Virus record (IMG/VR): IMGVR_UViG_2548876862_000020
Reading direction: 5' to 3' (one strand)
DNA length: 10,174 nt
Origin: a virus
Taxonomy: Duplodnaviria > Heunggongvirae > Uroviricota > Caudoviricetes
Of this stretch, positions 1 to 10,174 are shown in pieces; position 1 is the stretch's first letter; each line of letters opens with the position of its first letter. Under the pieces are notes generated by a model. The model had not been told where the DNA came from. It ran no database searches and saw only the letters and a program-made list of their open reading frames with translations. The translations under genes and the position numbers were made by a program.

Positions 1-1251
1 GTGCTTACCGATACAAAATTAAAAAACCTCAAGCCGCAGGACAAACTGTACAAGGTCTCCGATCGTGACGGGCTGTATGTAGCTGTGCTTACGTCAGGCA
101 CGGTCTCGTTTCGCTATGACTACCGTATCAACGGTCGCCGCGAAACACTGGTAATCGGGCAGTATGGGCGTGACGGTATCAGCCTGGCAGAAGCGCGAGA
201 AGAACTGATTGCTGCAAAGAAGCTGCTTAAAGCAGGCCAGTCGCCGGCTGCGGCTAAACGTGACGGTATCAAAAAGATTCGTGGTGCCGAGACGTTTGCG
301 GTACATACCGACAGTTATATGAAACACGTCATCCTGGCTGACAGTACCCGCGCAATGAAGCAGACGGTGATCGACCGTGACATACTTCCGGTTCTTGGCA
401 ACAAAATGATGGCTGAAATTACCACATCGATGGTTCGTGATTTGTGTGACCGGATTGTCGAACGCGGTGGTCGGGCAACAGCAGTACAGGCCAGGGAAAT
501 CATCAGCAGCGTATACCGTCACGCCAATGACCGTGGTCATGGTTTGTTTAATCCTGCGGCTGACATTAAACCTTCGTCTATCGCCATATTTAAACCACGA
601 GAGCGAACACTGACACCAGAAGAAATTGGCCTGTTCTTCCGCACGCTGGATGCCATTGGTGCTATGGGCACTATGAAAATGGCTTTAAAGCTGGTGCTTA
701 TCACTATGGTTCGTAAAGGCGAATTCACCAATGCAACGTGGGATGAAATAGATTTTAAAAAATGGACATGGACAATTCCTTCAGACCGCATGAAGGGAAG
801 CCGGGCGCACGTTATTTACCTGCCTAAACAGGCACAGGATATATTGGTTGGGTTGCAGATGTGCGCTGGTGGAAGTGAATATCTGGTTCCTGGTCGTTAC
901 AATTTTCGGAAGCCATTATCTAATGCCGCGCTGAACTCTCTGATCGACAGAACGGTGAAAATAATAAATGAAGATGGTGAGCATATTCAGGGCTTCACCG
1001 TACACGATATGCGCCGTACAGCCAGTACGTTGTTGCATGAGGCTGGTTATCCTTCAGACTGGATTGAAAAGGCTATGGCACATGAGCAGAAAGGTGTGCG
1101 CGCCGTATATAACAAAGCGGAATACGCCAGACAGCGCGCCTACATGTTGCAGCAGTGGGCCGATATGATTGATTCCTGGATTAACAGGGAGCATACGGAT
1201 CTGATTCCGTTCTCCCCGTCGAAGTTTGAGAAGTGGATGGCGGGGGAATAA
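1..1251 (+). CDS. int: Phage tyrosine integrase, P4/IntA-like family
   Basis: 416-codon ORF from GTG at position 1. C-terminal region shows tyrosine-recombinase signature (MVRKGEF, HDMRRT, VRAVYNKAEY with candidate catalytic Tyr). N-terminus LTDTKLKNLKP resembles P4-type integrases. Start coincides with the window edge, so a few codons may lie upstream. Confidence 0.9.
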   Translation: MLTDTKLKNLKPQDKLYKVSDRDGLYVAVLTSGTVSFRYDYRINGRRETLVIGQYGRDGISLAEAREELIAAKKLLKAGQSPAAAKRDGIKKIRGAETFAVHTDSYMKHVILADSTRAMKQTVIDRDILPVLGNKMMAEITTSMVRDLCDRIVERGGRATAVQAREIISSVYRHANDRGHGLFNPAADIKPSSIAIFKPRERTLTPEEIGLFFRTLDAIGAMGTMKMALKLVLITMVRKGEFTNATWDEIDFKKWTWTIPSDRMKGSRAHVIYLPKQAQDILVGLQMCAGGSEYLVPGRYNFRKPLSNAALNSLIDRTVKIINEDGEHIQGFTVHDMRRTASTLLHEAGYPSDWIEKAMAHEQKGVRAVYNKAEYARQRAYMLQQWADMIDSWINREHTDLIPFSPSKFEKWMAGE

Positions 1252-1254
1252 CGT

Positions 1255-1449
1255 TTAATAGTTCTGCTGATTTTCTTCCATCTCTGCTTCTGCTGCCAGT
1301 GATTCAATTTTGTTTTCGAATATTGCTGACAGTGTTGCAAATTCAGCATCAGTGACAGCGGGAATTGGAACAAACCTGATCCCGCTGTGTGCAAGCATGT
1401 TTGCAGTTTCAAGGCATTTTCTTAAATCTGCTGGTGATGCCCTGTTCAT
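1255..1449 (-). CDS. Hypothetical small acidic protein (64 aa), translationally coupled to the methyltransferase
   Basis: Internal ATG at 1449-1447 of track ORF 1255..1569 overlaps the methyltransferase TGA stop (1448-1446) as ATGA. GGGAG sits 8-9 nt upstream. Stop lies 3 nt from the convergent int stop. The longer 104-aa form would overlap 120 nt of the methyltransferase gene and was not preferred. Confidence 0.5.
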   Translation of the reverse strand: MNRASPADLRKCLETANMLAHSGIRFVPIPAVTDAEFATLSAIFENKIESLAAEAEMEENQQNY

Positions 1450-2096
1450 GCAGCACGCTCCCGCCCCTGGTTGTCTGTTGGTGACAGCGGAGAATTGCTG
1501 AATGCATTTGTTAATCCGCCAATATCCAACGCGTATCCAGGGTGTAGTTGCACTGCCGGGTCTTCGCACTGATTACCCCAAACATCGAAGCCATGAGACG
1601 ACTGGCGGGCGAATAGTTCAATGCGAGAAACATCGCCTAACAATTGCACAAGTTTTTCACGAACGACATCTGGTTTTCTTGAGTGCTCAAGCCGCGGTGC
1701 GGTAAATGACTGAACGATCCCTGCATTAATGCGCGGAGGTAGTTTTCCCTTTACCGCAAACAGGCAATCTTCACTATTGGCGCGAGTCATGTGTCCCATA
1801 CCCATAACCAGTTTATCTGGTTGTCGACTACCACATTTTATCCACGTGAATCCCTTCATGGTCATCAGACGGAATCCCCAGGCTTCAACAACTTTTAGTG
1901 CTTCGAGTGGTTGTGTTGGCACCCACCACATGGCCAACAGACAGTTTTCATCGGCCAAATCCCACACAGGAAGGCGGCAGATATCCAGCACACTCATAAC
2001 CGGATATTTAAAACCGGCACCGCGATTACCATCTGCGGCTTTATCCCGGTATACCCAGGGTGGATCTGCATAGATTAGCGTGTATTTCTTAGTCAT
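1446..2096 (-). CDS. Orphan N6-adenine DNA methyltransferase, MT-A70 family
   Basis: 216-aa ORF with N-terminal IYADPPW (DPPW catalytic motif of MT-A70-type amino-methyltransferases). No adjacent restriction endonuclease gene. Lies in the prophage left arm, as do Dam-like methylases of Stx-type phages. Confidence 0.85.
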   Translation of the reverse strand: MTKKYTLIYADPPWVYRDKAADGNRGAGFKYPVMSVLDICRLPVWDLADENCLLAMWWVPTQPLEALKVVEAWGFRLMTMKGFTWIKCGSRQPDKLVMGMGHMTRANSEDCLFAVKGKLPPRINAGIVQSFTAPRLEHSRKPDVVREKLVQLLGDVSRIELFARQSSHGFDVWGNQCEDPAVQLHPGYALDIGGLTNAFSNSPLSPTDNQGRERAA

Positions 2097-2388
2097 AAAC
2101 CACCCCGCAACATCCTATGCCGCTATAGTCGCCACGGCGAAGGCCGTTACCTTTTGTGATACATTGGTCCCTGCGAACCGCGATCCTTGCACGCTCAACA
2201 TCACCAGAAGCAACATCCATACACTGAAGCCAAAGGTGGGCAGCAATGCGGAACTGCCCTTTTTTCTCTCTTTCAATCGCGCGTTTTTCGATCTCTATCG
2301 CCGCAGGAGTAACGGCAACAACCTTTGAAGGGCTGCGCATTGAAACCTTGTTCATGTGATATTTTTCAAGTCGGCTTAACTTTCTCAC
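2089..2388 (-). CDS. Hypothetical basic protein (99 aa) with C-terminal Cys cluster; first gene of the methyltransferase block
   Basis: ORF with GTG start at 2388 preceded by GAGAGGG. Its 3' end overlaps the methyltransferase start by 8 nt. Arg/Lys-rich, ends in GIGCCGVVYD. Family not recognised with confidence (possibly ANR-like small regulator). Confidence 0.5.
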   Translation of the reverse strand: MRKLSRLEKYHMNKVSMRSPSKVVAVTPAAIEIEKRAIEREKKGQFRIAAHLWLQCMDVASGDVERARIAVRRDQCITKGNGLRRGDYSGIGCCGVVYD

Positions 2389-2497
2389 TTAATCCAACCC
2401 TCTCTGAAAATTAATGCCAGCAGATAAAGCCATGCTGAAACAGAGGCCAGGAATAAGTACCATCCTGACCATTTGCTCCAGTGCCTTAGCAGCACAC

Positions 2498-2746
2498 TCA
2501 TGCCGCGTTGCTCACAGGACGATATACACGTTGCTGAACAGGAGGTTTTTTACCCTGGAACTCTGCCGGGCTTGCTGCCTGACGTTCATCAAGCCAACGC
2601 TCAACTTCATCACGGTTCCATGCGCAGCGTTTGTCAGTGATATACCAGCGTTTAGGAAATTCCCCTGCGCGCTCCATACGGTCGATAGTGCTCCATGACA
2701 GTGGCACCACCGCCAGGAGTTCCTTCTTACCTAATGCACCTTTCAT
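2498..2746 (-). CDS. AlpA-family HTH protein (prophage regulatory / excisionase-like)
   Basis: 82-aa ORF with ATG at 2746 preceded by AGAGAGG. Segment LLAVVPLSWSTIDRMERAGEFPKRWYITDKRCAWNRDEVERW matches the AlpA/Vis-type winged-HTH pattern. Confidence 0.7.
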   Translation of the reverse strand: MKGALGKKELLAVVPLSWSTIDRMERAGEFPKRWYITDKRCAWNRDEVERWLDERQAASPAEFQGKKPPVQQRVYRPVSNAA

Positions 2747-2795
2747 AAATACCTCTCTTGGTTGCAGTGCGGCGCGCGTGGCGCCGCGGTGGTGG

Positions 2796-3677
2796 TTACA
2801 TAGATGTTTCGTTTAATTCTTCCCGACGAACGCTGTAAACGTCGGTGGCTTTTGCCAGCAGTTCGTCATCATCTGAAAGTTTTTGTGCAATGTATTTGTA
2901 AGCCTTATCCAGTTCGGAGACAGTGCTGTAATTCATCGCTGCGCTGGTAAAGGCCATCAGCATTTCTTCTGGATCACGGCTATCCGCTTTACGCGTTTGC
3001 TCATCATGCTTTTTCGCTGGTTTAGCGTTGATCAGACTGTTCATTCCCGCAGCAGTAGTCGTTTGCGGAGTAATGTCTCGCTCAACGCGCGGTGCCGTTT
3101 CCTGTAATTCGTCAGGGGTGTAAACACCGAGAAGCACATCAGGAGCGTGCAGGCGAGCCCATCGTTTCGTGCAAAGATAGGCAAGCTGCTGGCGCGGATC
3201 CTGTTCCCACAATGGAGAGTTACGCACTCCGGCTTGCGCCATACTGATGGTAAGCTCACGGGGTTCTGCTTCTCCTTTAAGAACTGCTGACACAGTTACC
3301 GTCAGATTCGGTGATTTATCTGTTTTGCCGTTAACATTCGACCAGTCACCGCTCCAGCGATAATTCAGGCGTGTCGCTAGCAGGCTGGAAGAGGATACGA
3401 CCGCGTTTACCAACTGTGCTTCGTAGCCTAACGTTCCGTTTACCACATGCGTTTTCTGCGCCACGGCGAAAGGGTTCATTCCCCACTGTGCCGCCTGCAT
3501 GGTCACCGCCAGACAATCGGAAGGTTTGCCTTCAAGATGTTTCGGTACAGTCGCTTTGCTTTGTGACATCAACTCCGCGAAACGCACCAGTTGATTCATG
3601 CCCTCGGGGCTGAAGATTGCCGCAGCAGTGCCTACAGTTGCGCCTGGTTGTGATGTGATTGCGATATCATTGCTCAT
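2796..3677 (-). CDS. recT: RecT/Bet-family single-strand annealing recombinase
   Basis: 293-aa ORF. Segments MQAAQWGMNPF and RVERDITP resemble lambda Bet / RecT. Start ATG overlaps the upstream exonuclease stop as ATGA (3677-3674). Confidence 0.85.
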   Translation of the reverse strand: MSNDIAITSQPGATVGTAAAIFSPEGMNQLVRFAELMSQSKATVPKHLEGKPSDCLAVTMQAAQWGMNPFAVAQKTHVVNGTLGYEAQLVNAVVSSSSLLATRLNYRWSGDWSNVNGKTDKSPNLTVTVSAVLKGEAEPRELTISMAQAGVRNSPLWEQDPRQQLAYLCTKRWARLHAPDVLLGVYTPDELQETAPRVERDITPQTTTAAGMNSLINAKPAKKHDEQTRKADSRDPEEMLMAFTSAAMNYSTVSELDKAYKYIAQKLSDDDELLAKATDVYSVRREELNETSM

Positions 3678-4495
3678 ACATACATATCCTGTTTACGTGC
3701 CCAGTCAGGGCGTTTAATAATTTCCACTCCGCCCCATTCATCGTTGATGCGGCATTCGTGATAGGTATTCAGATCCCGGCGGAACAGAGCGTGCCCGGCA
3801 TCGACATCCTGCGCATCCAGCTCGAACACGCGTACCGGATACCGACCACAATCAATGCTTTCGCTCACGGCAAGAAAGAAAAAACCATGCGTCTGACCAG
3901 TAACCCTCATTGCGCCTTCGCGGTACATTGCGTCCTGCACGTGGTAGCGGAATTCCTCGATGTGGCGTGCAAAACGGTCCATATCTGCAACCTTTTTCAC
4001 GTCGACGATCACGTTGTGCTCGTTCAGCCATTTGTCTGGACGAATGCGGCACAACTCACCAGTATCTTCATCGTTCCAGTACATTGATGCTTCGCAGTAA
4101 CCAGGTGCTTCCAGCATCCAGCGTGCCGCCGGGTGAGCCATTGCGCTATCACGCATCAGCTCCAGTTTCCGCCACTGCTCGGCATCAAGTACCGTAATCC
4201 CCATATCCGCCACATCACGAAGAAATGCCTCTTCGTCAGCTTTACCTTGTTTCGTCCGACGATCGAATTTCGGTGAAACAATGAAGCGTTTGTCGAACTC
4301 TCCAGGCTCCAGAAGCAGACAGTGCAATGCGGTTCCCATATCCAGTGCAGACTTTTTCTCTTCGTCTTCTGGTGCTGCCTGAACCCATTTAAGAAGCGCC
4401 GGATTCTTGGCAACCATGTCCAGTTGCGACTTACTCACGCCGTCACCTGCGTGGTAGTCTTCGTTGCTGATGTCGAAATAAATTCCCGGTTTCAT
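3674..4495 (-). CDS. RecE-like short-form exonuclease (exonuclease VIII-like, PD-(D/E)XK fold)
   Basis: 273-aa ORF starting MKPGIYFDISNEDYHAGDGVSKSQLD, typical of prophage short exonuclease VIII-like proteins. Candidate D...E-x-K nuclease motif around RPDKW...VDVKK. Paired and translationally coupled with recT. Confidence 0.8.
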   Translation of the reverse strand: MKPGIYFDISNEDYHAGDGVSKSQLDMVAKNPALLKWVQAAPEDEEKKSALDMGTALHCLLLEPGEFDKRFIVSPKFDRRTKQGKADEEAFLRDVADMGITVLDAEQWRKLELMRDSAMAHPAARWMLEAPGYCEASMYWNDEDTGELCRIRPDKWLNEHNVIVDVKKVADMDRFARHIEEFRYHVQDAMYREGAMRVTGQTHGFFFLAVSESIDCGRYPVRVFELDAQDVDAGHALFRRDLNTYHECRINDEWGGVEIIKRPDWARKQDMYV

Positions 4496-4791
4496 GCCGC
4501 GTCCCTCTGCCCATCAAGCTGATCTGCCAGATCCCAGCGCGCTATAATTGCCATTGCCTCGCGCCGGTAGGCATCCATCAGTTCTTCGAACTCAGGGCTG
4601 TCTTTAGCAGCCTCCAGCACTTCCTGACGAACGCCTTTGCCTGTTACAACGTCGAAAGTTGAGGACAGTTGATGGAGTCGGATGCTCTCAATCAGTTCAA
4701 CTTGTCGGTCATATAGCTGTTCTGACAGGCGGTAGTCCTTGTCGAATGCCAGCATGATTTTTTGAAGATTTTTCTGCTGATTAACGTTCAT
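4492..4791 (-). CDS. Hypothetical protein (99 aa) immediately upstream of and coupled to the exonuclease
   Basis: ATG at 4791 preceded by GGGAGGG at 6-nt spacing. Stop overlaps the exonuclease start as ATGA (4495-4492). Track start at 4806 lacks an SD. Confidence 0.55.
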   Translation of the reverse strand: MNVNQQKNLQKIMLAFDKDYRLSEQLYDRQVELIESIRLHQLSSTFDVVTGKGVRQEVLEAAKDSPEFEELMDAYRREAMAIIARWDLADQLDGQRDAA

Positions 4792-4793
4792 TA

Positions 4794-4946
4794 TCAGCCC
4801 TCCCATATCTCGTTATCGTTGGCTACATCGCGAGCTTCTTTGCTGACGAAAGCCCACTTAATGCCTTCCTGTAAGGTGCGGAACTTCCAGCTCATGAATC
4901 CGCATGCAGCAACGCAGTACCAACCGTTGATGATTTTCCACTGCAT
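4794..4946 (-). CDS. Small Trp-rich ORF (50 aa), first gene downstream of pL
   Basis: Hand-translated, not in ORF track: MQWKIINGWYCVAACGFMSWKFRTLQEGIKWAFVSKEARDVANDNEIWEG. ATG 4946 preceded by GAGGT at 8 nt. E. coli-like codon choice. Its 3' end supplies the SD for the next gene. Confidence 0.35.
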   Translation of the reverse strand: MQWKIINGWYCVAACGFMSWKFRTLQEGIKWAFVSKEARDVANDNEIWEG

Positions 4947-4965
4947 AACTTGTTACCTCGGTCTG

Positions 4966-5042
4966 TTACCGTTGAGGTAATGATTATGCGTATCTGGTTT
5001 GATGTCAATAGATATGAGTTAAAAAAATTACCCATAAGGTAA
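4966..5042 (-). promoter_or_regulatory. pL-like promoter flanked by two operator palindromes
   Basis: Minus strand reads operator TTACCTTATGGGTAA (5042-5028), 19 bp, -35 TTGACA (5008-5003), 17-bp spacer, -10 AATCAT (4985-4980), operator TTACCTCAACGGTAA (4980-4966). Operator centres are 62 bp apart. Confidence 0.6.
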
Positions 5043-5052
5043 TCTTGCTGGC

Positions 5053-5079
5053 AATAAAAAAGCCGCCATGAGGCGGCTT
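5053..5079 (-). terminator. Rho-independent terminator downstream of the repressor gene
   Basis: GC stem gccgcc (5062-5067) / ggcggc (5072-5077), extendable by 2 A-T pairs, with 4-nt loop. Followed on the minus strand by UUUUAUU. Lies 21 bp after the repressor stop. Confidence 0.7.
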
Positions 5080-5099
5080 ACTTGCTGAAAACTATAGTT

Positions 5100-5708
5100 T
5101 TATTGTTTGCTTTTTTCGTTCTGGTTGATGACAAATTCAATGTAACTTTCGATCTTTGCTTTCTCGGTTTCGGGTAACAATGCGTAGCGCGAGCGGTCAT
5201 AGTTGATAGTCGCAGGGTCGTGCGGGTGAATCAGTAGTTCATATCCGTGACGCCCGAATGCGGATGCAACATTCTCCAGGGTGGAAATGGAAACGCTGAC
5301 CTCATTGTTTAACAGGCGGCTGATTGTCACCTGGGCGACGCCGGATGCGCGGTGAAGTTTTCCCTGCGTTGAAAGGTCGCGGCTTTCGCTCATCCAGCGT
5401 TCCAGGTTGTGAGCCGCCAGCTGACCAATGTCGCTTGGTCCGACAGGCTGAAAACCTTCCTGAGAAAGCGAGCGATCGATATCAAGCCAGTTACGGGGTT
5501 TATTGGCGGCAGCTTCAATTTTTCGCGCAACCTGGTCGCCGATAACCTTCTTGCCAAGAGCCCAGCGGTTTACCAGATTTGCCTGAGTTCCAAGTTTTTC
5601 TGCCATCCGCGTCTGAACACCATTGAATTCACGGTCGATCAAGTCGTTGAGATTTTGCCTGCGGACGTCCTGGATACTTTTCATTTTCTGGAAAATCGCC
5701 TCATACAT
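5100..5708 (-). CDS. Prophage immunity repressor (CI-like position) with two HTH domains and no apparent S24 peptidase domain
   Basis: 202-aa ORF divergent from the cro-like gene across the operator region. N-terminal HTH (QTRMAEKLGTQANLVNRWALGKK) and a second XRE-type HTH (SGVAQVTISRLLNNEVSVSISTLENVASAFG). No room or motif for a LexA-like Ser/Lys autocleavage domain. Confidence 0.75.
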   Translation of the reverse strand: MYEAIFQKMKSIQDVRRQNLNDLIDREFNGVQTRMAEKLGTQANLVNRWALGKKVIGDQVARKIEAAANKPRNWLDIDRSLSQEGFQPVGPSDIGQLAAHNLERWMSESRDLSTQGKLHRASGVAQVTISRLLNNEVSVSISTLENVASAFGRHGYELLIHPHDPATINYDRSRYALLPETEKAKIESYIEFVINQNEKSKQ

Positions 5709-5739
5709 GAATCAGTAGATGATTCAATTTAAAGCAATA

Positions 5740-5813
5740 TTACCCAACAGGTAAATGCACCCCATAGGTAACTATCCTTGATTTTTGTTACCTTATGGGT
5801 GAATATTTATTAT
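5740..5813. promoter_or_regulatory. OR-like operator/promoter region between repressor and cro-like genes
   Basis: Three palindromes: 5740-5754 ttacccaacaggtaa, 5757-5771 gcaccccataggtaa (degenerate), 5788-5802 ttaccttatgggtga. Candidate pR: -35 TTGTTA (5785-5790), 17 bp, -10 TATTAT (5808-5813). Candidate pRM on minus strand: -10 AATCAT (5724-5719), a few nt before the repressor ATG. Confidence 0.55.
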
Positions 5814-5838: not shown

Positions 5839-6069
5839 ATGAGCGATAACGGACATTTCGATTTCAAAAAGCACTGGCTTGCACTTACTCCGGATGAGCG
5901 TGAAGCCTTCGCACAGGAAGCCGGAACGACGAGTCACTATATCCAGACTCACTTAACAGGTAAGCGCAAAATGCCAGGTAAAGTATTGATGAATGGGCTT
6001 TTTAAAGCCTGTAAATCAAGACAATGGTTGCGCTCAAAAGCAGAACTGGCATACTTCTTCTACTCATGA
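5839..6069 (+). CDS. Cro-like HTH regulator (YdaS/Cro-type)
   Basis: 76-aa ORF divergent from the repressor. HTH-like segment LTPDEREAFAQEAGTTSHYIQTHLTGKRKMP. Occupies the cro position. Confidence 0.65.
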   Translation: MSDNGHFDFKKHWLALTPDEREAFAQEAGTTSHYIQTHLTGKRKMPGKVLMNGLFKACKSRQWLRSKAELAYFFYS

Positions 6070-6090
6070 TATCCAGCCACAACCCTCTGT

Positions 6091-6114
6091 AGACCGCCAT
6101 CCGGCGGTCTTTTC
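6091..6114 (+). terminator. Intrinsic terminator after the cro-like gene (tR1-like position)
   Basis: Stem agaccgcc (6091-6098) / ggcggtct (6103-6110), loop atcc, followed by TTTT (6111-6114). Confidence 0.6.
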
Positions 6115-6219
6115 ATATCTATTCGCACCTCAAAGGTAATAAAAAACCAAATCTGGTTGATCTTTTTTTTGTGTCAGCACAAAATAACCGTAATCCCAAT
6201 ACTAATAACAGGGCTTACC

Positions 6220-6420
6220 ATGGAAATCATTACACGTATTGATGCCGCAAAGCGCGGACTTAAACGCTACTACACCGGAAAACCATGTAAGCACGGACAT
6301 GACAGTGAACGCTGGGTTTACAACGGACACTGTGTTGAGTGCACCATGGAATCAAACCGTCGCATCAGGGCAGAGATTAAGCAGATCATGATTAATTCCT
6401 CCCCACAACATTCAAGCTGA
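6220..6420 (+). CDS. Small Cys/His zinc-ribbon-like protein (66 aa) at the cII position
   Basis: Internal ATG 6220 of track ORF 6157..6420. Upstream part of the track ORF overlaps the terminator region and is hydrophobic junk. Motif C-K-H-G-H ... C-V-E-C. Confidence 0.5.
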   Translation: MEIITRIDAAKRGLKRYYTGKPCKHGHDSERWVYNGHCVECTMESNRRIRAEIKQIMINSSPQHSS

Positions 6421-6435
6421 TAGCGGAGATTAATC

Positions 6436-7251
6436 ATGAGCAGACATGCAACAGATTGGGCCTGGGAGACAGATCCAGGTAGCTCGTCATTAAAGCTCAT
6501 ACTGCTCTCGATGGCTGACAGAGCCGATGAATATAACCTCTGCTACCCCAGCATAGAACGCCTCGTTAAAGACACTTGCCTGAATAAAAAAACCGTACAG
6601 GCCGGGCTTATATCGCTCATGAAAATGGGGCTTATTTCAGATACCGGAGAGAGAAAGGGTGCGACGAAAAGAGTGCGGGTTTTCTCTCTTAATATAACCA
6701 AAAACGGGAACATTAAAGGCAACCGGGAGGGAGGTAATGAACCCAAAAACGGTAATGTTACCGAAAACGGGAATATACCCAAAAACGGGATGTTGAATAT
6801 ACCCAAAAACGGGATGTTGAATGATCCCAAAAACGGGATCCAGAACCAGTCATATAACCAGTCATTTAACCAAGAGAGGGAGAGCAGGACAAAAACCGGG
6901 GATTCTGTTCCTCATGACCCCGGCGCAAACAACGCCGTGATGAATAACTTTGTTCCTCCTGGTGGGCTAGGGCAATTAGGCAAATTTGTCATGCATGAAC
7001 AATGGCAACCATCAGATGACTTTCTTCGGAAAAGCTCATTGCAGGGGATCTACCTGGACAGTCTGCCAACGGCACAGGAACTTGCAGAGTTCAGAATTTA
7101 CTGGATGGCTGAGGGTAAGGCATACCATCAGGCACAGTGGGAGCAGAAGCTGGCAAGGCGGCTGCAGATTAGCAGACAGAAGCAATCAACATTACCTGAT
7201 AACAACGTTCCGCACTGGAACAGCCCTGAAGCGTGGGAGGATTTCTTGTGA
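6436..7251 (+). CDS. Replication initiator, O-like (winged-helix N-domain, repeat linker, C-domain)
   Basis: 271-aa ORF, ATG 6436 preceded by GGAG at 7 nt. Contains DNA iterons internally. Immediately followed by and overlapped with a lambda P-like gene. Confidence 0.8.
   Translation: MSRHATDWAWETDPGSSSLKLILLSMADRADEYNLCYPSIERLVKDTCLNKKTVQAGLISLMKMGLISDTGERKGATKRVRVFSLNITKNGNIKGNREGGNEPKNGNVTENGNIPKNGMLNIPKNGMLNDPKNGIQNQSYNQSFNQERESRTKTGDSVPHDPGANNAVMNNFVPPGGLGQLGKFVMHEQWQPSDDFLRKSSLQGIYLDSLPTAQELAEFRIYWMAEGKAYHQAQWEQKLARRLQISRQKQSTLPDNNVPHWNSPEAWEDFL
6698..6840 (+). repeat. Origin-like iterons inside the O-like gene
   Basis: Six copies of core CCAAAAACGG(G/T)A at 6698, 6743, 6762, 6778, 6802, 6826. 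Two exact 24-bp tandem units at 6775-6798 and 6799-6822. Followed by tandem CAGTCAT(A/T)TAACC at 6847-6871. Encodes the low-complexity PKNG peptide repeat. Confidence 0.75.
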
Positions 7252-8033
7252 ACAACGTTTTTACCGCGATACAAAACCGTGACGGAGAAGCCCTTTATCG
7301 CATGTCAGGTTATGAGCATCAGTACGTCAACAATGACAATGTGGTGAACATGTCAGCAGAGAGGCTTGTTGATGCCCTTTTCAAACAGCTGAAACAACTG
7401 TTTCCGGCGGCAGTGGTAACCAACCTGAAGACGCCAGAGCAGGAAGTTGCTGCAAAACAGCAGTGGATTGCTGCGTTTGCCGAAGGGGGGATCCGAACCC
7501 GTGAACAGGTTTCTGCTGGTATGCGCCACGCCCGCGCCAGTGAATCTCCGTTCTGGCCGTCGCCAGGGCAATTTATCAAGTGGTGTAAAGACAGCAAGAT
7601 GGTTCTTGGCGTCACCATTGACGATGTGATGGCGGAGTTTCACCGGTACAGCAAGGAAAAAAGTTTATATCCTGGTGGTCCCGAAAGATTCCCGTGGCGA
7701 CATCCGGTTATGTACTGGGTCGTATGTGATACCCGCCGTGCAATGTATCAGCGCCAGCTTAGCGAGATTGAGGTTGAGAAACATGCGCGCAGGCTGCTCG
7801 ATGATTGGGCGAAAAAGGTGGCTTCCGGACAGCAGATACCCGATCCGGTGATCAGCATACAGGCAAAGCCAGAACCCATGAGTACGCCTCCGGACACAGG
7901 GAGAGACGTTTACCATCCACCAGGGCGAAGTTTCGGGTGTATGCCTAACGCCGCTACCCTGGGGGGAATAACACCGGCGCAGTGGCTGATGGAGGAATAC
8001 AGGCGGGGAAAGGCGGCAGGATTTATCAAGTAA
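7248..8033 (+). CDS. Lambda P-like replication protein (DnaB helicase loader)
   Basis: Segment QQWIAAFAEGGIRTREQVSAGMRHARASESPFWPSPGQFIKWCKDS parallels lambda P as recalled from memory. Preferred start GTG 7248 has GGGAGG 8 nt upstream and overlaps the O stop as GTGA. Track start 7233 has no SD. Confidence 0.8.
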   Translation: MNNVFTAIQNRDGEALYRMSGYEHQYVNNDNVVNMSAERLVDALFKQLKQLFPAAVVTNLKTPEQEVAAKQQWIAAFAEGGIRTREQVSAGMRHARASESPFWPSPGQFIKWCKDSKMVLGVTIDDVMAEFHRYSKEKSLYPGGPERFPWRHPVMYWVVCDTRRAMYQRQLSEIEVEKHARRLLDDWAKKVASGQQIPDPVISIQAKPEPMSTPPDTGRDVYHPPGRSFGCMPNAATLGGITPAQWLMEEYRRGKAAGFIK

Positions 8034-8038
8034 TACCA

Positions 8039-8058
8039 GCGCGATAGCGCATTTTTTT
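8039..8058 (+). terminator. Weak terminator-like hairpin plus T7 run after the P-like gene
   Basis: gcgc (8039-8042), loop gata, gcgc (8047-8050), then a-TTTTTTT (8052-8058). Stem is only 4 bp, so weak. Confidence 0.35.
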
Positions 8059-8070
8059 ACGTCTTGATAA

Positions 8071-8147
8071 TTACCTGTTGGGTAATAAAATATTCTAAAA
8101 TCTATTGATTTCGTGTCTTATGTGGTTTTTAATTACCTCAGGGGTAA
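8071..8147 (+). promoter_or_regulatory. Third operator-flanked promoter (p3) upstream of the DUF1064-like gene
   Basis: Operator TTACCTGTTGGGTAA (8071-8085), 19 bp, -35 TTGATT (8105-8110), 17-bp spacer, -10 TTTAAT (8128-8133), operator TTACCTCAGGGGTAA (8133-8147). Same spacing as pL. Confidence 0.55.
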
Positions 8148-8150
8148 ATC

Positions 8151-8495
8151 ATGAGAAAACAGATACAGGCTCTTGGTCGACTCAAAACAGGCCAGATGAA
8201 CAAAACAGAATCTGCGTATTGCCAGCACCTTGAGCTGCGTAAACGTGCAGGGGAAATCGCCTGGTATCGATTCGAGGGTATCAAGCTGCGGTTAGCTGAT
8301 AACACGTTCTATACGCCAGATTTCGCTGTGATGCTCGCCACCGGAGAGATGGAACTGCACGAAGTGAAAGGTTTCTGGACCGACGACGCCAGGGTGAAAA
8401 CCAAAGTCGCCGCAGATCAATATCCGTTCCGAATCATCGGGGTAACTGTTAAGCCAAAGAAAGCAGGTGGTGGCTGGAAAATCGAAGAGTTCTGA
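8151..8495 (+). CDS. DUF1064-like phage protein (predicted PD-(D/E)XK-type nuclease fold)
   Basis: 114-aa ORF. Motif YTPDF ... GEMELHEVKG fits D-x(n)-E-x-K. Overall pattern recalled as DUF1064, common next to lambdoid replication genes. Confidence 0.6.
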   Translation: MRKQIQALGRLKTGQMNKTESAYCQHLELRKRAGEIAWYRFEGIKLRLADNTFYTPDFAVMLATGEMELHEVKGFWTDDARVKTKVAADQYPFRIIGVTVKPKKAGGGWKIEEF

Positions 8496-8556
8496 ATCGA
8501 CGATCTCTTTAGTTATCAATGTAATCAATAAGTTATGTGGATAAGTGAGGGTAAAG

Positions 8557-9036
8557 ATGGAAAGTAATATCAAAGGGTTAGTTTCCGCCGGGCATGAGAT
8601 GGCTTCGGAACTGAAAGCAGAATGTGGTGCCGTTGATATGCGTAATGTGGCAAAGCTGCTCAGCGATTTTGCAACGCAACTGGAAGTGCAACTGGTGCGT
8701 GCTAATGCGCTGGCGGCGGAGAATGCGGGGCTGAAGTCTGGCGCTATGGACGAAATCAAGGTTATCAACCGTGGAGGTCAGGCATATTGCGTAAAAGATG
8801 GAGTGCAAGTTAATCCCATGTATGCAAGAGGGTGGAATGACTATCGCGCAAAGTCTCTGCAATCAGACACCCCAGCCACCGATGCTTTCCTGGCTGAAAT
8901 TGAACGCAAAGCAATCCGCAAGTTCATTAACAGCATTGAACACATCCTGCGTGACAAGTTGTCACCGTATGACACCGAAGAGATGCTTGAGGCTATGCGT
9001 ATTTTTCTGGAAGAACAGGGAGGCGAGCAAAAATGA
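8557..9036 (+). CDS. Hypothetical protein (159 aa)
   Basis: ATG 8557 preceded by GTGAGGG at 5 nt (track start 8545 is the GTG inside this SD). Stop overlaps the next start as ATGA (9033-9036). Confidence 0.55.
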   Translation: MESNIKGLVSAGHEMASELKAECGAVDMRNVAKLLSDFATQLEVQLVRANALAAENAGLKSGAMDEIKVINRGGQAYCVKDGVQVNPMYARGWNDYRAKSLQSDTPATDAFLAEIERKAIRKFINSIEHILRDKLSPYDTEEMLEAMRIFLEEQGGEQK

Positions 9037-9347
9037 CAATCACAAAACAACGAGTAGAAAAAATCATATATCGCCATGAAATGGGACTGAACAGCGATGT
9101 CACTGCCGAAGAGGTTTATGACCTGGCTGTACTGGCGCTGAATTTATCAAATATCGCAAATCTGAAGCGATACGAGCTTGATATGGGAGGTTGTGACTCA
9201 TGCGGTCAGGATTGTGGCGCTGACATGACTGAAGATTCTGATGGCAATTATGTCCTGTTTGATGACGTGGTTAAGTTGTTTGAGTTTGATACAACCACTC
9301 GGAAGCTAGAAAGCCCAGCAAAGGAGGCAACCAGTGAGCAAGATTGA
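9033..9347 (+). CDS. Hypothetical protein (104 aa) with C-x2-C-x3-C motif
   Basis: ORF coupled to the upstream gene by ATGA. Contains GGCDSCGQDCG and an acidic tail. 3' end overlaps the next gene by 14 nt. Confidence 0.5.
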   Translation: MTITKQRVEKIIYRHEMGLNSDVTAEEVYDLAVLALNLSNIANLKRYELDMGGCDSCGQDCGADMTEDSDGNYVLFDDVVKLFEFDTTTRKLESPAKEATSEQD

Positions 9348-9912
9348 CTATCAGGCGCTGCGTGAGGCAGCAGAACGTGCAATTCCGGCAATGGAACGCC
9401 TGTTAATGTTGCCAGTTGATGATGATTTGTTAAGTGAACAGGAACTTAAAGATTACGGTGTGGATATTGATGCGCTCAACGCCTTCAAATTTCTGACCGG
9501 ACCAGAAACCGTGCTGGCACTACTGGATGAACTGGAAAGAAACCAGCAATACATAAAACGCCGCGATCAGGAGAACGAGGAAATTGCGCTAACGGTAGGG
9601 AAGCTGCGTGTTGAGCTGGAAGCCGCAGAGAAGCGCATTGCAGAACTGGAAGCACGGGAAATAAAACCAGCCAAAGGCGAAGTTCTTGTCGTTGTTTCTG
9701 GTTTTACTGGTTGCGGAAAAAGCGCCATTGCCGGGGAAATAGAAATCGCGATGAAGGCTATTGGTGTACCGGTTAAGTGGACTAATGGCGATGCAGAAAA
9801 GCGCATGACTGGCGCTGACTGGCTGACAGCAATTGAGATGTACAAACCAACTGTGCGCATTGTGGAAGTTAATGTGCCACGCGTCGCTGGCATTCGCATC
9901 AAAGGAGAGTGA
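9334..9912 (+). CDS. Ead/Ea22-like family protein (coiled-coil)
   Basis: GTG 9334 preceded by AAGGAGG at 6 nt. N-terminal IDYQALREAAERA, then VLALLDELE and KRIAELE, match the recalled Ea22-like pattern. Confidence 0.6.
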   Translation: MSKIDYQALREAAERAIPAMERLLMLPVDDDLLSEQELKDYGVDIDALNAFKFLTGPETVLALLDELERNQQYIKRRDQENEEIALTVGKLRVELEAAEKRIAELEAREIKPAKGEVLVVVSGFTGCGKSAIAGEIEIAMKAIGVPVKWTNGDAEKRMTGADWLTAIEMYKPTVRIVEVNVPRVAGIRIKGE

Positions 9913-9913
9913 C

Positions 9914-10174
9914 GTGGAAATAAATCCAGAAGATGAGTTAAGTAATATTGTTTTATTTCCGGTAAAAGAGGATGACCCACGTAATCAGGTTAATTTTCTT
10001 TATGAGCCATCGGAAAGACCATACTGCCATCACGCTTCTGTCCGGGTTGACGAAAAAGAGCGTCAGGTCCGCTGTAAAAACTGCGGTGCAGTTGTGGAGC
10101 CGTTTGACTGGATGCTCTCAGTGGCGAAAAGAGAAACCAGACTGGCAGATGATGTAAGGCTATTGCGCCAGGAG
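9914..10174 (+). CDS. 3'-truncated ORF missing from the ORF track, Cys/His-containing unknown protein
   Basis: Open frame from GTG 9914 to window end (87 codons, no stop). AAGGAG at 9901-9906, 7 nt upstream. Translation VEINPEDELSNIVLFPVKEDDPRNQVNFLYEPSERPYCHHASVRVDEKERQVRCKNCGAVVEPFDWMLSVAKRETRLADDVRLLRQE. Alternative in-frame ATG at 9872 is possible. Confidence 0.5.
   Translation, partial: MEINPEDELSNIVLFPVKEDDPRNQVNFLYEPSERPYCHHASVRVDEKERQVRCKNCGAVVEPFDWMLSVAKRETRLADDVRLLRQE

Follow-up and report, generated by a model that had tools for sequence, protein, structure and literature searches.

A hairpin terminator and a candidate promoter between cro-like and replication genes of a phiV10-like prophage

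The 150-bp spacer between the cro-like gene and the gene for a 66-aa protein (positions 6070–6219 of the window, by which we mean the whole 10,174-nt stretch of phage DNA analyzed) is best explained, with a probability that we put at roughly 60%, as the boundary of two transcription units, a terminator followed by a restart promoter, and not as an antitermination site. Transcripts from pR would cover the cro-like gene only and would end at the stem-loop T1 (6091–6110) and its U-rich tail, after which, about 46 nt further on, a σ70-type promoter would restart transcription near position 6192. This promoter, comprising TTGATC, a 17-nt spacer and CAAAAT, with an A-tract and a GGTAAT half-operator upstream, would drive the genes for the 66-aa, O-like and P-like proteins. 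T1 would in this way uncouple expression of the cro-like gene from that of the replication genes, and would shield the downstream promoter against incoming pR transcription. Since the replication genes appear to have a conserved promoter of their own, lambda-style antitermination would not be needed.

The sequence of the window corresponds to the early region of a phiV10-like prophage (Uetakevirus, epsilon15 group). The 2 kb around the spacer are 98% identical to Escherichia phage phiV10 and 76–78% identical to Enterobacter Uetakevirus phages, and a 582-bp segment is found in 538 of 5426 complete E. coli genomes (∼10%). An integrase gene (1–1251, plus strand) is followed by a leftward operon (1446–4946, minus strand) encoding a methylase, PerC-like and AlpA-like proteins, RecT, a PDDEXK nuclease and two small proteins. 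RecT (2796–3677, minus strand) and the nuclease (3674–4495, minus strand) occupy two overlapping ORFs here, in place of the single fused recET gene (1761 nt) annotated in phiV10. A terminator (5079–5060, minus strand) and the gene of a two-HTH repressor (5100–5708, minus strand) precede the cro-like HTH gene (5839–6069, plus strand; stop codon 6067–6069), which is the homologue of phiV10 p41 and epsilon15 gp39 and the sole gene of the pR-proximal unit. Its product is 98.7% identical to p41 and matches phrog_35 (“transcriptional repressor”, E 8.7e-13), while against PDB profiles the family yields a marginal HTH match only, to immunity repressor 8bny. On the other side of the spacer, the gene for the 66-aa Cys/His-rich protein (6220–6420, plus strand; homologue of phiV10 p42 and epsilon15 gp40; phrog_1081, E 7.7e-43) is the first gene of the replication unit, with the DnaT/O-like initiator gene (6436–7251, plus strand) and then the lambda-P-like loader gene (7233–8033, plus strand) downstream, followed by a resolvase-like gene (8151–8495, plus strand) and then by genes without assigned function. 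Relatives of the 66-aa protein (CKHGH...CVEC) occur in nearly 200 phage records, many of them of Vibrio phages, and some of these relatives form the N-terminal part of annotated HNH endonuclease or endonuclease VII proteins. Within the O-like gene (6740–6830) lie tandem peptide repeats of the GN(I/V)PKNGMLN type, the repeated DNA having hairpin-like sites on the minus strand; as in lambda, the repeats might be intragenic iterons of an origin.

T1 starts 21 nt past the stop codon of the cro-like gene and has the orientation of that gene. The stem-loop, AGACCGCC-ATCC-GGCGGTCT (6091–6110, plus strand), has an 8-bp stem with six GC pairs and a 4-nt loop, and directly 3′ of the stem lies TTTCATATCTA. 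The U-rich tail, UUUCAUAUCUA (6111–6121, plus strand), holds four consecutive U residues if the closing U is counted, and with that residue included (UUUUCAUAUCU) it is a short, interrupted U-tract. The folding energy of about −15 kcal/mol compares with a shuffle mean of −4.7 (z −5.1), a value matched by 0 of 200 shuffles, and when the whole spacer is folded T1 forms in the MFE structure as well as in the centroid. The d'Aubenton-Carafa-type score is +6.6, and higher if the closing A-U pair is assigned to the tail, such scores being approximate here, with modern folding energies entered into the formula. A simple terminator scan of the window found 10 candidates against 10.6 expected from shuffles, and because this is no enrichment the support for T1 comes from fold statistics and conservation, not from the scan count. 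T1 is already known: the GenBank record of phiV10 (DQ126339.2, 33078–33100, between p41 and p42) lists this very element as a putative rho-independent terminator, at the same position after the same gene and with no more than point differences in the flanks. The vB_EcoP_ZX5 paper (PMC9782041) makes no mention of terminators. Thus, the GC-rich intrinsic terminator that the initial annotation had placed between the cro-like and replication genes is borne out by its stability, by the phiV10 annotation and by its conserved pairs. With a stable GC-rich stem, an adjacent U-rich tract, a position at the end of a gene and a structure that is kept in relatives, T1 is by its sequence a credible intrinsic terminator of the window and would be expected to act as such in vivo. 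With only four consecutive U residues it may be leaky, and it is probably not fully efficient. A bidirectional terminator was also considered and rejected, the minus strand having no T-run after the hairpin.

The homologous spacers compared come from phages of Enterobacter, Salmonella and Klebsiella as well as prophages of Citrobacter, Erwinia, Kluyvera, Buttiauxella, Pseudocitrobacter, Scandinavium and Klebsiella. All 17 lineages (∼10 genera) have a GC hairpin, with folding energies between −9.8 and −15.4 kcal/mol, that ends 42–48 nt upstream of the −35 motif. When the alignment is anchored on the 3′ arm, the six core pairs of T1 are paired in 101 of the 102 cells over 17 distinct sequences; two pairs show compensatory exchanges between GC and AU, and others have G-U intermediates. 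Covariation scores higher than in all 500 shuffles and in most slid controls, but not higher than in the +3 slide, and the +2 slide is about equal. Among 77 E. coli-type copies, variation is confined to the loop (ATCC, ACCC, ACTC or ACCT), the upstream flank or G-U pairs, and the 3′ arm is invariant. A viral-contig scan with the cro-like family listed 80 matches, all with 99–100% identical protein, and these loci, being near-identical, are informative on polymorphism only. Stability of the fold, conserved and compensated pairs and neutral variation among the E. coli copies together argue that T1 is real and selected as an RNA structure. The tail is less constant than the stem. Terminator scores are positive for the window and Buttiauxella, marginal in three lineages, and −36 to −42 for the tested epsilon15 and Klebsiella hairpins, which have tails UCCUUCC or UCCCGCC; the Citrobacter hairpins carry the same tail, devoid of a U-tract. 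In seven loci of epsilon15, Citrobacter and Klebsiella (∼1750–1770 of each locus) the stem is invariant, the loops are variable and the U-tract is gone, and the epsilon15 record annotates no terminator at the homologous hairpin. Because the U-tract is missing there, classical intrinsic termination is not the whole story across the family, and the hairpin must, as far as these sequences can be read, have some further role. A core of GCCGCC and GGCGGC is common to three terminator hairpins of the phage type, found after the repressor gene (5060–5079, minus strand), after the cro-like gene (6091–6110, plus strand) and after the last early gene, the third lying directly upstream of two operators and the small terminase gene.

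T1 is embedded in an untranslated, C-rich and G-poor tract (6070–6134, plus strand; C 37%, G 14%), with 16 C against 3 G outside the hairpin and a C–G skew in the top 25 of 10110 65-nt windows (top 0.25%). The skew recurs in 13 of 14 lineages even where the sequence has diverged, and is missing only from the one that has the best U-tract. In composition the tract resembles a Rho loading site (rut-like) and recalls lambda tR1 with its hairpin between rutA and rutB. T1 might accordingly be a composite or Rho-assisted terminator, with the C-rich tract loading Rho and pR transcripts being ended with or instead of the intrinsic signal, a proposal that we hold to be distinctly improbable and that is compatible with a downstream promoter. 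It draws on the extreme composition of the tract, on the persistence of the skew in divergent sequence and on the lineages that lack a U-tract and retain an invariant stem with variable loops; against this, the tract spans only ∼65 nt, part of which is sequestered by the hairpin, and the hairpin and U-tract of the E. coli lineage already score as an intrinsic terminator. A further proposal, highly speculative and with very little probability in our estimate, takes the fixed spacing of 42–48 nt, the loss of the U-tract in some lineages and the constant C-rich context as grounds to regard the hairpin and its C-rich RNA, even without a U-tract, not as a plain terminator but as a family-wide, N-independent control cassette. 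Such a cassette could be, for example, a Rho-dependent stop with an efficiency governed by the repressor or a Cro-like protein bound to the GGTAAT half-site, or else a switch made up of a roadblock and a promoter, perhaps adjusted through Dam methylation of the −35 GATC.

The initial annotation had counted as part of a terminator barrier a second, weaker structure at 6141–6170, composed of an A-tract, a hairpin and a T8 run. The sequence is as described (A6, AACCA-AATC-TGGTT, GATC and T8), and the assignment as a terminator falls. The weak inverted repeat AACCA-AATC-TGGTT (6145–6158, no strand assigned) is conserved as DNA and not as an RNA structure: on the plus strand its folding energy is −4 kcal/mol (z −0.9), 31 of 200 shuffles fold equally well, and the 4 nt of GATC separate the stem from the T8 run. 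Two of the five pairs are broken among the 15 lineages aligned, in 10 and 6 of the 15 sequences respectively, and these lineages contain no compensatory change or covariation in the stem. A plus-strand terminator was rejected on the grounds of the weak fold, the GATC gap and the uncompensated mismatches. On the minus strand the fold is −5.8 kcal/mol (z −2.0), and a terminator in that direction was rejected as well: it would have neither a minus-strand gene nor a conserved promoter upstream of it to terminate, and the stem does not covary. Folding energy, proposed initially as a check on both hairpins, thus upholds T1 (−15 kcal/mol) and tells against the second hairpin (−4 kcal/mol). The putative hairpin/T8 element appears to be a misread −35 region and T-rich spacer of a candidate promoter.

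The second structure sits within the best-conserved DNA of the spacer. The columns that are invariant in the 15 lineages are GGTAA, two scattered A, C and T, GGTTGAT, AAAAT and a C four bases later, and both the interval between TTGAT and AAAAT and the stretch downstream to the ribosome-binding site drift freely. In the window these columns correspond to a UP-like A-tract (6141–6146, plus strand), the A positions of which are partly conserved, a candidate −35 hexamer TTGATC (6157–6162, plus strand) with GGTTGAT invariant, a 17-nt promoter spacer of variable sequence that holds the T8 run (6163–6179, plus strand) and a candidate −10 hexamer CAAAAT (6180–6185, plus strand) with AAAAT invariant. 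The block is found in 97 of 100 loci, and the hexamers are 16–17 nt apart in 95 of these 97, and 15 or 18 nt apart in the remaining two. The hexamer pair begins 46 nt past the T1 hairpin, and the predicted start at ∼6192 would give a leader of 28 nt to the ATG at 6220. TTGATC-17-CAAAAT has 8 of 12 consensus matches, including A at −11 and T at −7, and is similar to the rightward promoter TTGATA-16-TAAAAT at 8064–8091. The simple promoter scan of the window did not list the site because of its 8/12 matches, and the GenBank record of phiV10 annotates neither this promoter nor the operator-like half-site. Hexamers at 16–18 nt, kept together with their spacing while the spacer between them drifts, make up the pattern expected of a σ70 promoter, and the conserved block is probably the promoter of the replication genes. 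The option of an extra promoter, raised in the initial annotation, is therefore the one that these sequences favor. An IHF site, a DnaA box or a replication origin behind the conserved block was rejected, the consensus sequences fitting poorly by eye and iteron-like repeats lying in the O-like gene instead.

Two further observations concern the block itself. In TL-2011b-type phages homology to the window ends right after TTGATC (6162/6163), a different replication module follows, and CAAAAT is retained at 16-nt spacing despite the swapped module; the conserved candidate promoter seems, from these sequences, to be an exchange point for alternative replication modules. The candidate −35 contains a Dam site, GATC (6159–6162), which is kept in 92 of 97 loci (the other five have TTGATA), and the phage has an adenine methylase gene of its own (1446–2096, minus strand). 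Promoter activity might depend on methylation.

For the operators, the consensus ATTACC-N5-GGTAAT was derived from repressor sites annotated in the epsilon15 record, in which operators of this type are scattered across the genome. The window has 14 matches with up to three mismatches against 3.25 expected, a number reached in 0 of 200 shuffles. Five operators have at most one mismatch: two flank the pL promoter (4965–4981 and 5027–5043), one lies in the pR/pRM region (5739–5755), one, a perfect match, fills the spacer of the promoter at 8064–8091 (8070–8086), and one ends 2 nt before the ATG of the next gene at 8151 (8132–8148). Upstream of the candidate promoter is an operator-like sequence, CGCACC-TCAAA-GGTAAT (6124–6140, no strand assigned), with a perfect right half, a degenerate left half and three mismatches to the consensus, too many for a 17-bp palindrome as defined here (at most ∼1 mismatch). 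In 15 lineages its GGTAA is invariant and the upstream CC nearly so, and this conservation of the right half in all lineages makes binding as a half-site or auxiliary site possible. A further ATAACC/ATTACC half-site abuts the candidate −10. The spacer of the candidate promoter contains no full repressor operator, and half-sites only are found nearby, which counts against the promoter reading as regards silencing in a lysogen.

The order GC hairpin, operator-type site, promoter occurs three times in the window, once behind each of the repressor, cro-like and P-like genes. At pL, the terminator at 5079–5060 (minus strand) is followed by pL itself (5008–4980) with operators on either side, and behind the P-like gene a terminator that is annotated in phiV10 is followed by the promoter at 8064–8091. 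The latter region (8039–8148) features a weak hairpin, GCGC-GATA-GCGC, with a T7 run ahead of TTGATA-16-TAAAAT. An Rfam search at permissive thresholds over the whole window returned nothing in 6070–6219 and one sub-threshold match elsewhere, at 4934–5152 (plus strand), to RF03532 (SQ2397, “cis-regulator of HTH transcription factor”; 28 bits where the gathering threshold is 100, E 0.12), which spans the pL/operator region and the terminator of the repressor gene.

Leakiness of T1 was the second option of the initial annotation. In its strong form, T1 is a leaky attenuator, the replication genes are expressed mainly from pR by partial read-through, and the conserved downstream block is a protein-binding or regulatory site and not a promoter. 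In lambda, some expression of O and P occurs past tR1 without N, and in the window the short and interrupted U-tract of T1 with its modestly positive terminator score, the 8/12 hexamers that the scan left unlisted and the lack of a full operator overlapping the candidate promoter all point the same way. We nevertheless regard this explanation as rather unlikely, given that TTGAT and AAAAT, invariant and 16–17 nt apart in 95 of 97 loci around a variable spacer, have the signature of a promoter, and that the layout of terminator and then promoter recurs at two other places of the window. Of the three possibilities, the downstream promoter has the best support; leakiness, rather unlikely as the main route, is reasonable as a minor contribution by partial read-through.

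The remaining option, a different antitermination mechanism, finds little to build on. As described initially, the first pL gene (4794–4946, minus strand) encodes a 50-aa, Trp-rich peptide (five Trp) and not an Arg-rich, N-like protein: neither of the first two pL genes contains an Arg-rich motif, and both match families of unknown function (phrog_898 and phrog_856). Neither the window nor the early genes scanned in phiV10, the complete reference phage, contain an N-like gene or a nut site. Neither the window genes nor phiV10 p46–p55 match an N/Q-type antiterminator family, and no Q-like protein is encoded at the end of the early right operon (phiV10 p46–p55, window genes 8151–10157), where the last early gene, p55, has its match in a “transcriptional regulator” family; the phiV10 and epsilon15 records contain no antiterminator annotation. 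The initial failure to spot boxA-like sequences is likewise confirmed, the window having a single match with one mismatch, at 10054 on the minus strand and in no relevant place, against 1.9 expected by chance. A boxB-type conserved loop is absent from the spacer, the loop of its only hairpin varying even within the E. coli copies, which makes a boxB-like recognition site unlikely. The leaders from pR and pL to the first genes are, as estimated from promoter positions, only ∼20–27 nt, and with 21 nt between the cro-like stop codon and T1 a put-like RNA would not fit. The search for put-like RNA and boxA/boxB that had been suggested has thus been run and found none in the relevant places, and the proposed alternative antitermination mechanism loses its footing, the leaders being too short and the region having no Rfam match. 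On its own strand, the leftward operon is free of terminator-like hairpins. An antitermination system of an unrecognized kind, in which a phage protein without known function or an RNA element carries pR transcription through T1 in lytic growth, is conceivable in that many early genes have no assigned function and could include a new family; with no N/Q homologue, boxA or Rfam match, too little space ahead of T1 for a put-like RNA, a variable hairpin loop and a pL operon without intrinsic terminators that need read-through, we give it hardly any credence. Nothing in the phage seems to require processive antitermination.

The spacer shares with lambda tR1/nutR a terminator right after a cro-type gene and ahead of the replication genes, and a hairpin within C-rich, G-poor RNA. 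In lambda, termination at tR1 depends on Rho, and N acts at boxA/boxB to overcome it; here there are instead an intrinsic hairpin with a U-tract, neither an N-like protein nor boxA, a variable loop and a conserved candidate promoter downstream. As in HK022, a lambdoid-type layout occurs without a functional N. The put elements of that phage are ∼65–70-nt two-stem RNAs just downstream of pL and pR, whereas the leaders and the stop-to-T1 interval of the window are much shorter and show no put structure. There is also a likeness to the other epsilon15/phiV10 boundaries of terminator and repressor-controlled promoter, at pL and at 8039–8091, with which the spacer has in common a GC hairpin, an operator-type site and TTGAT(A/C)-16/17-xAAAAT. 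It differs from these in that the operator is a half-site (three mismatches) located upstream of the −35 and not in the spacer.

The region is an ordinary operon boundary in a well-known and very common prophage family, and the wider importance of the finding is little. As the cro-like and replication genes would form separate units, their co-transcription should not be taken for granted, which is useful for correct annotation, for engineering of phiV10-type reporter phages and for reading RNA-seq data of lysogens. In this common E. coli prophage type, carried by about 1 in 10 complete genomes, the early genes would be arranged as short units that end in terminators and have promoters of their own, and not as an N/Q cascade.
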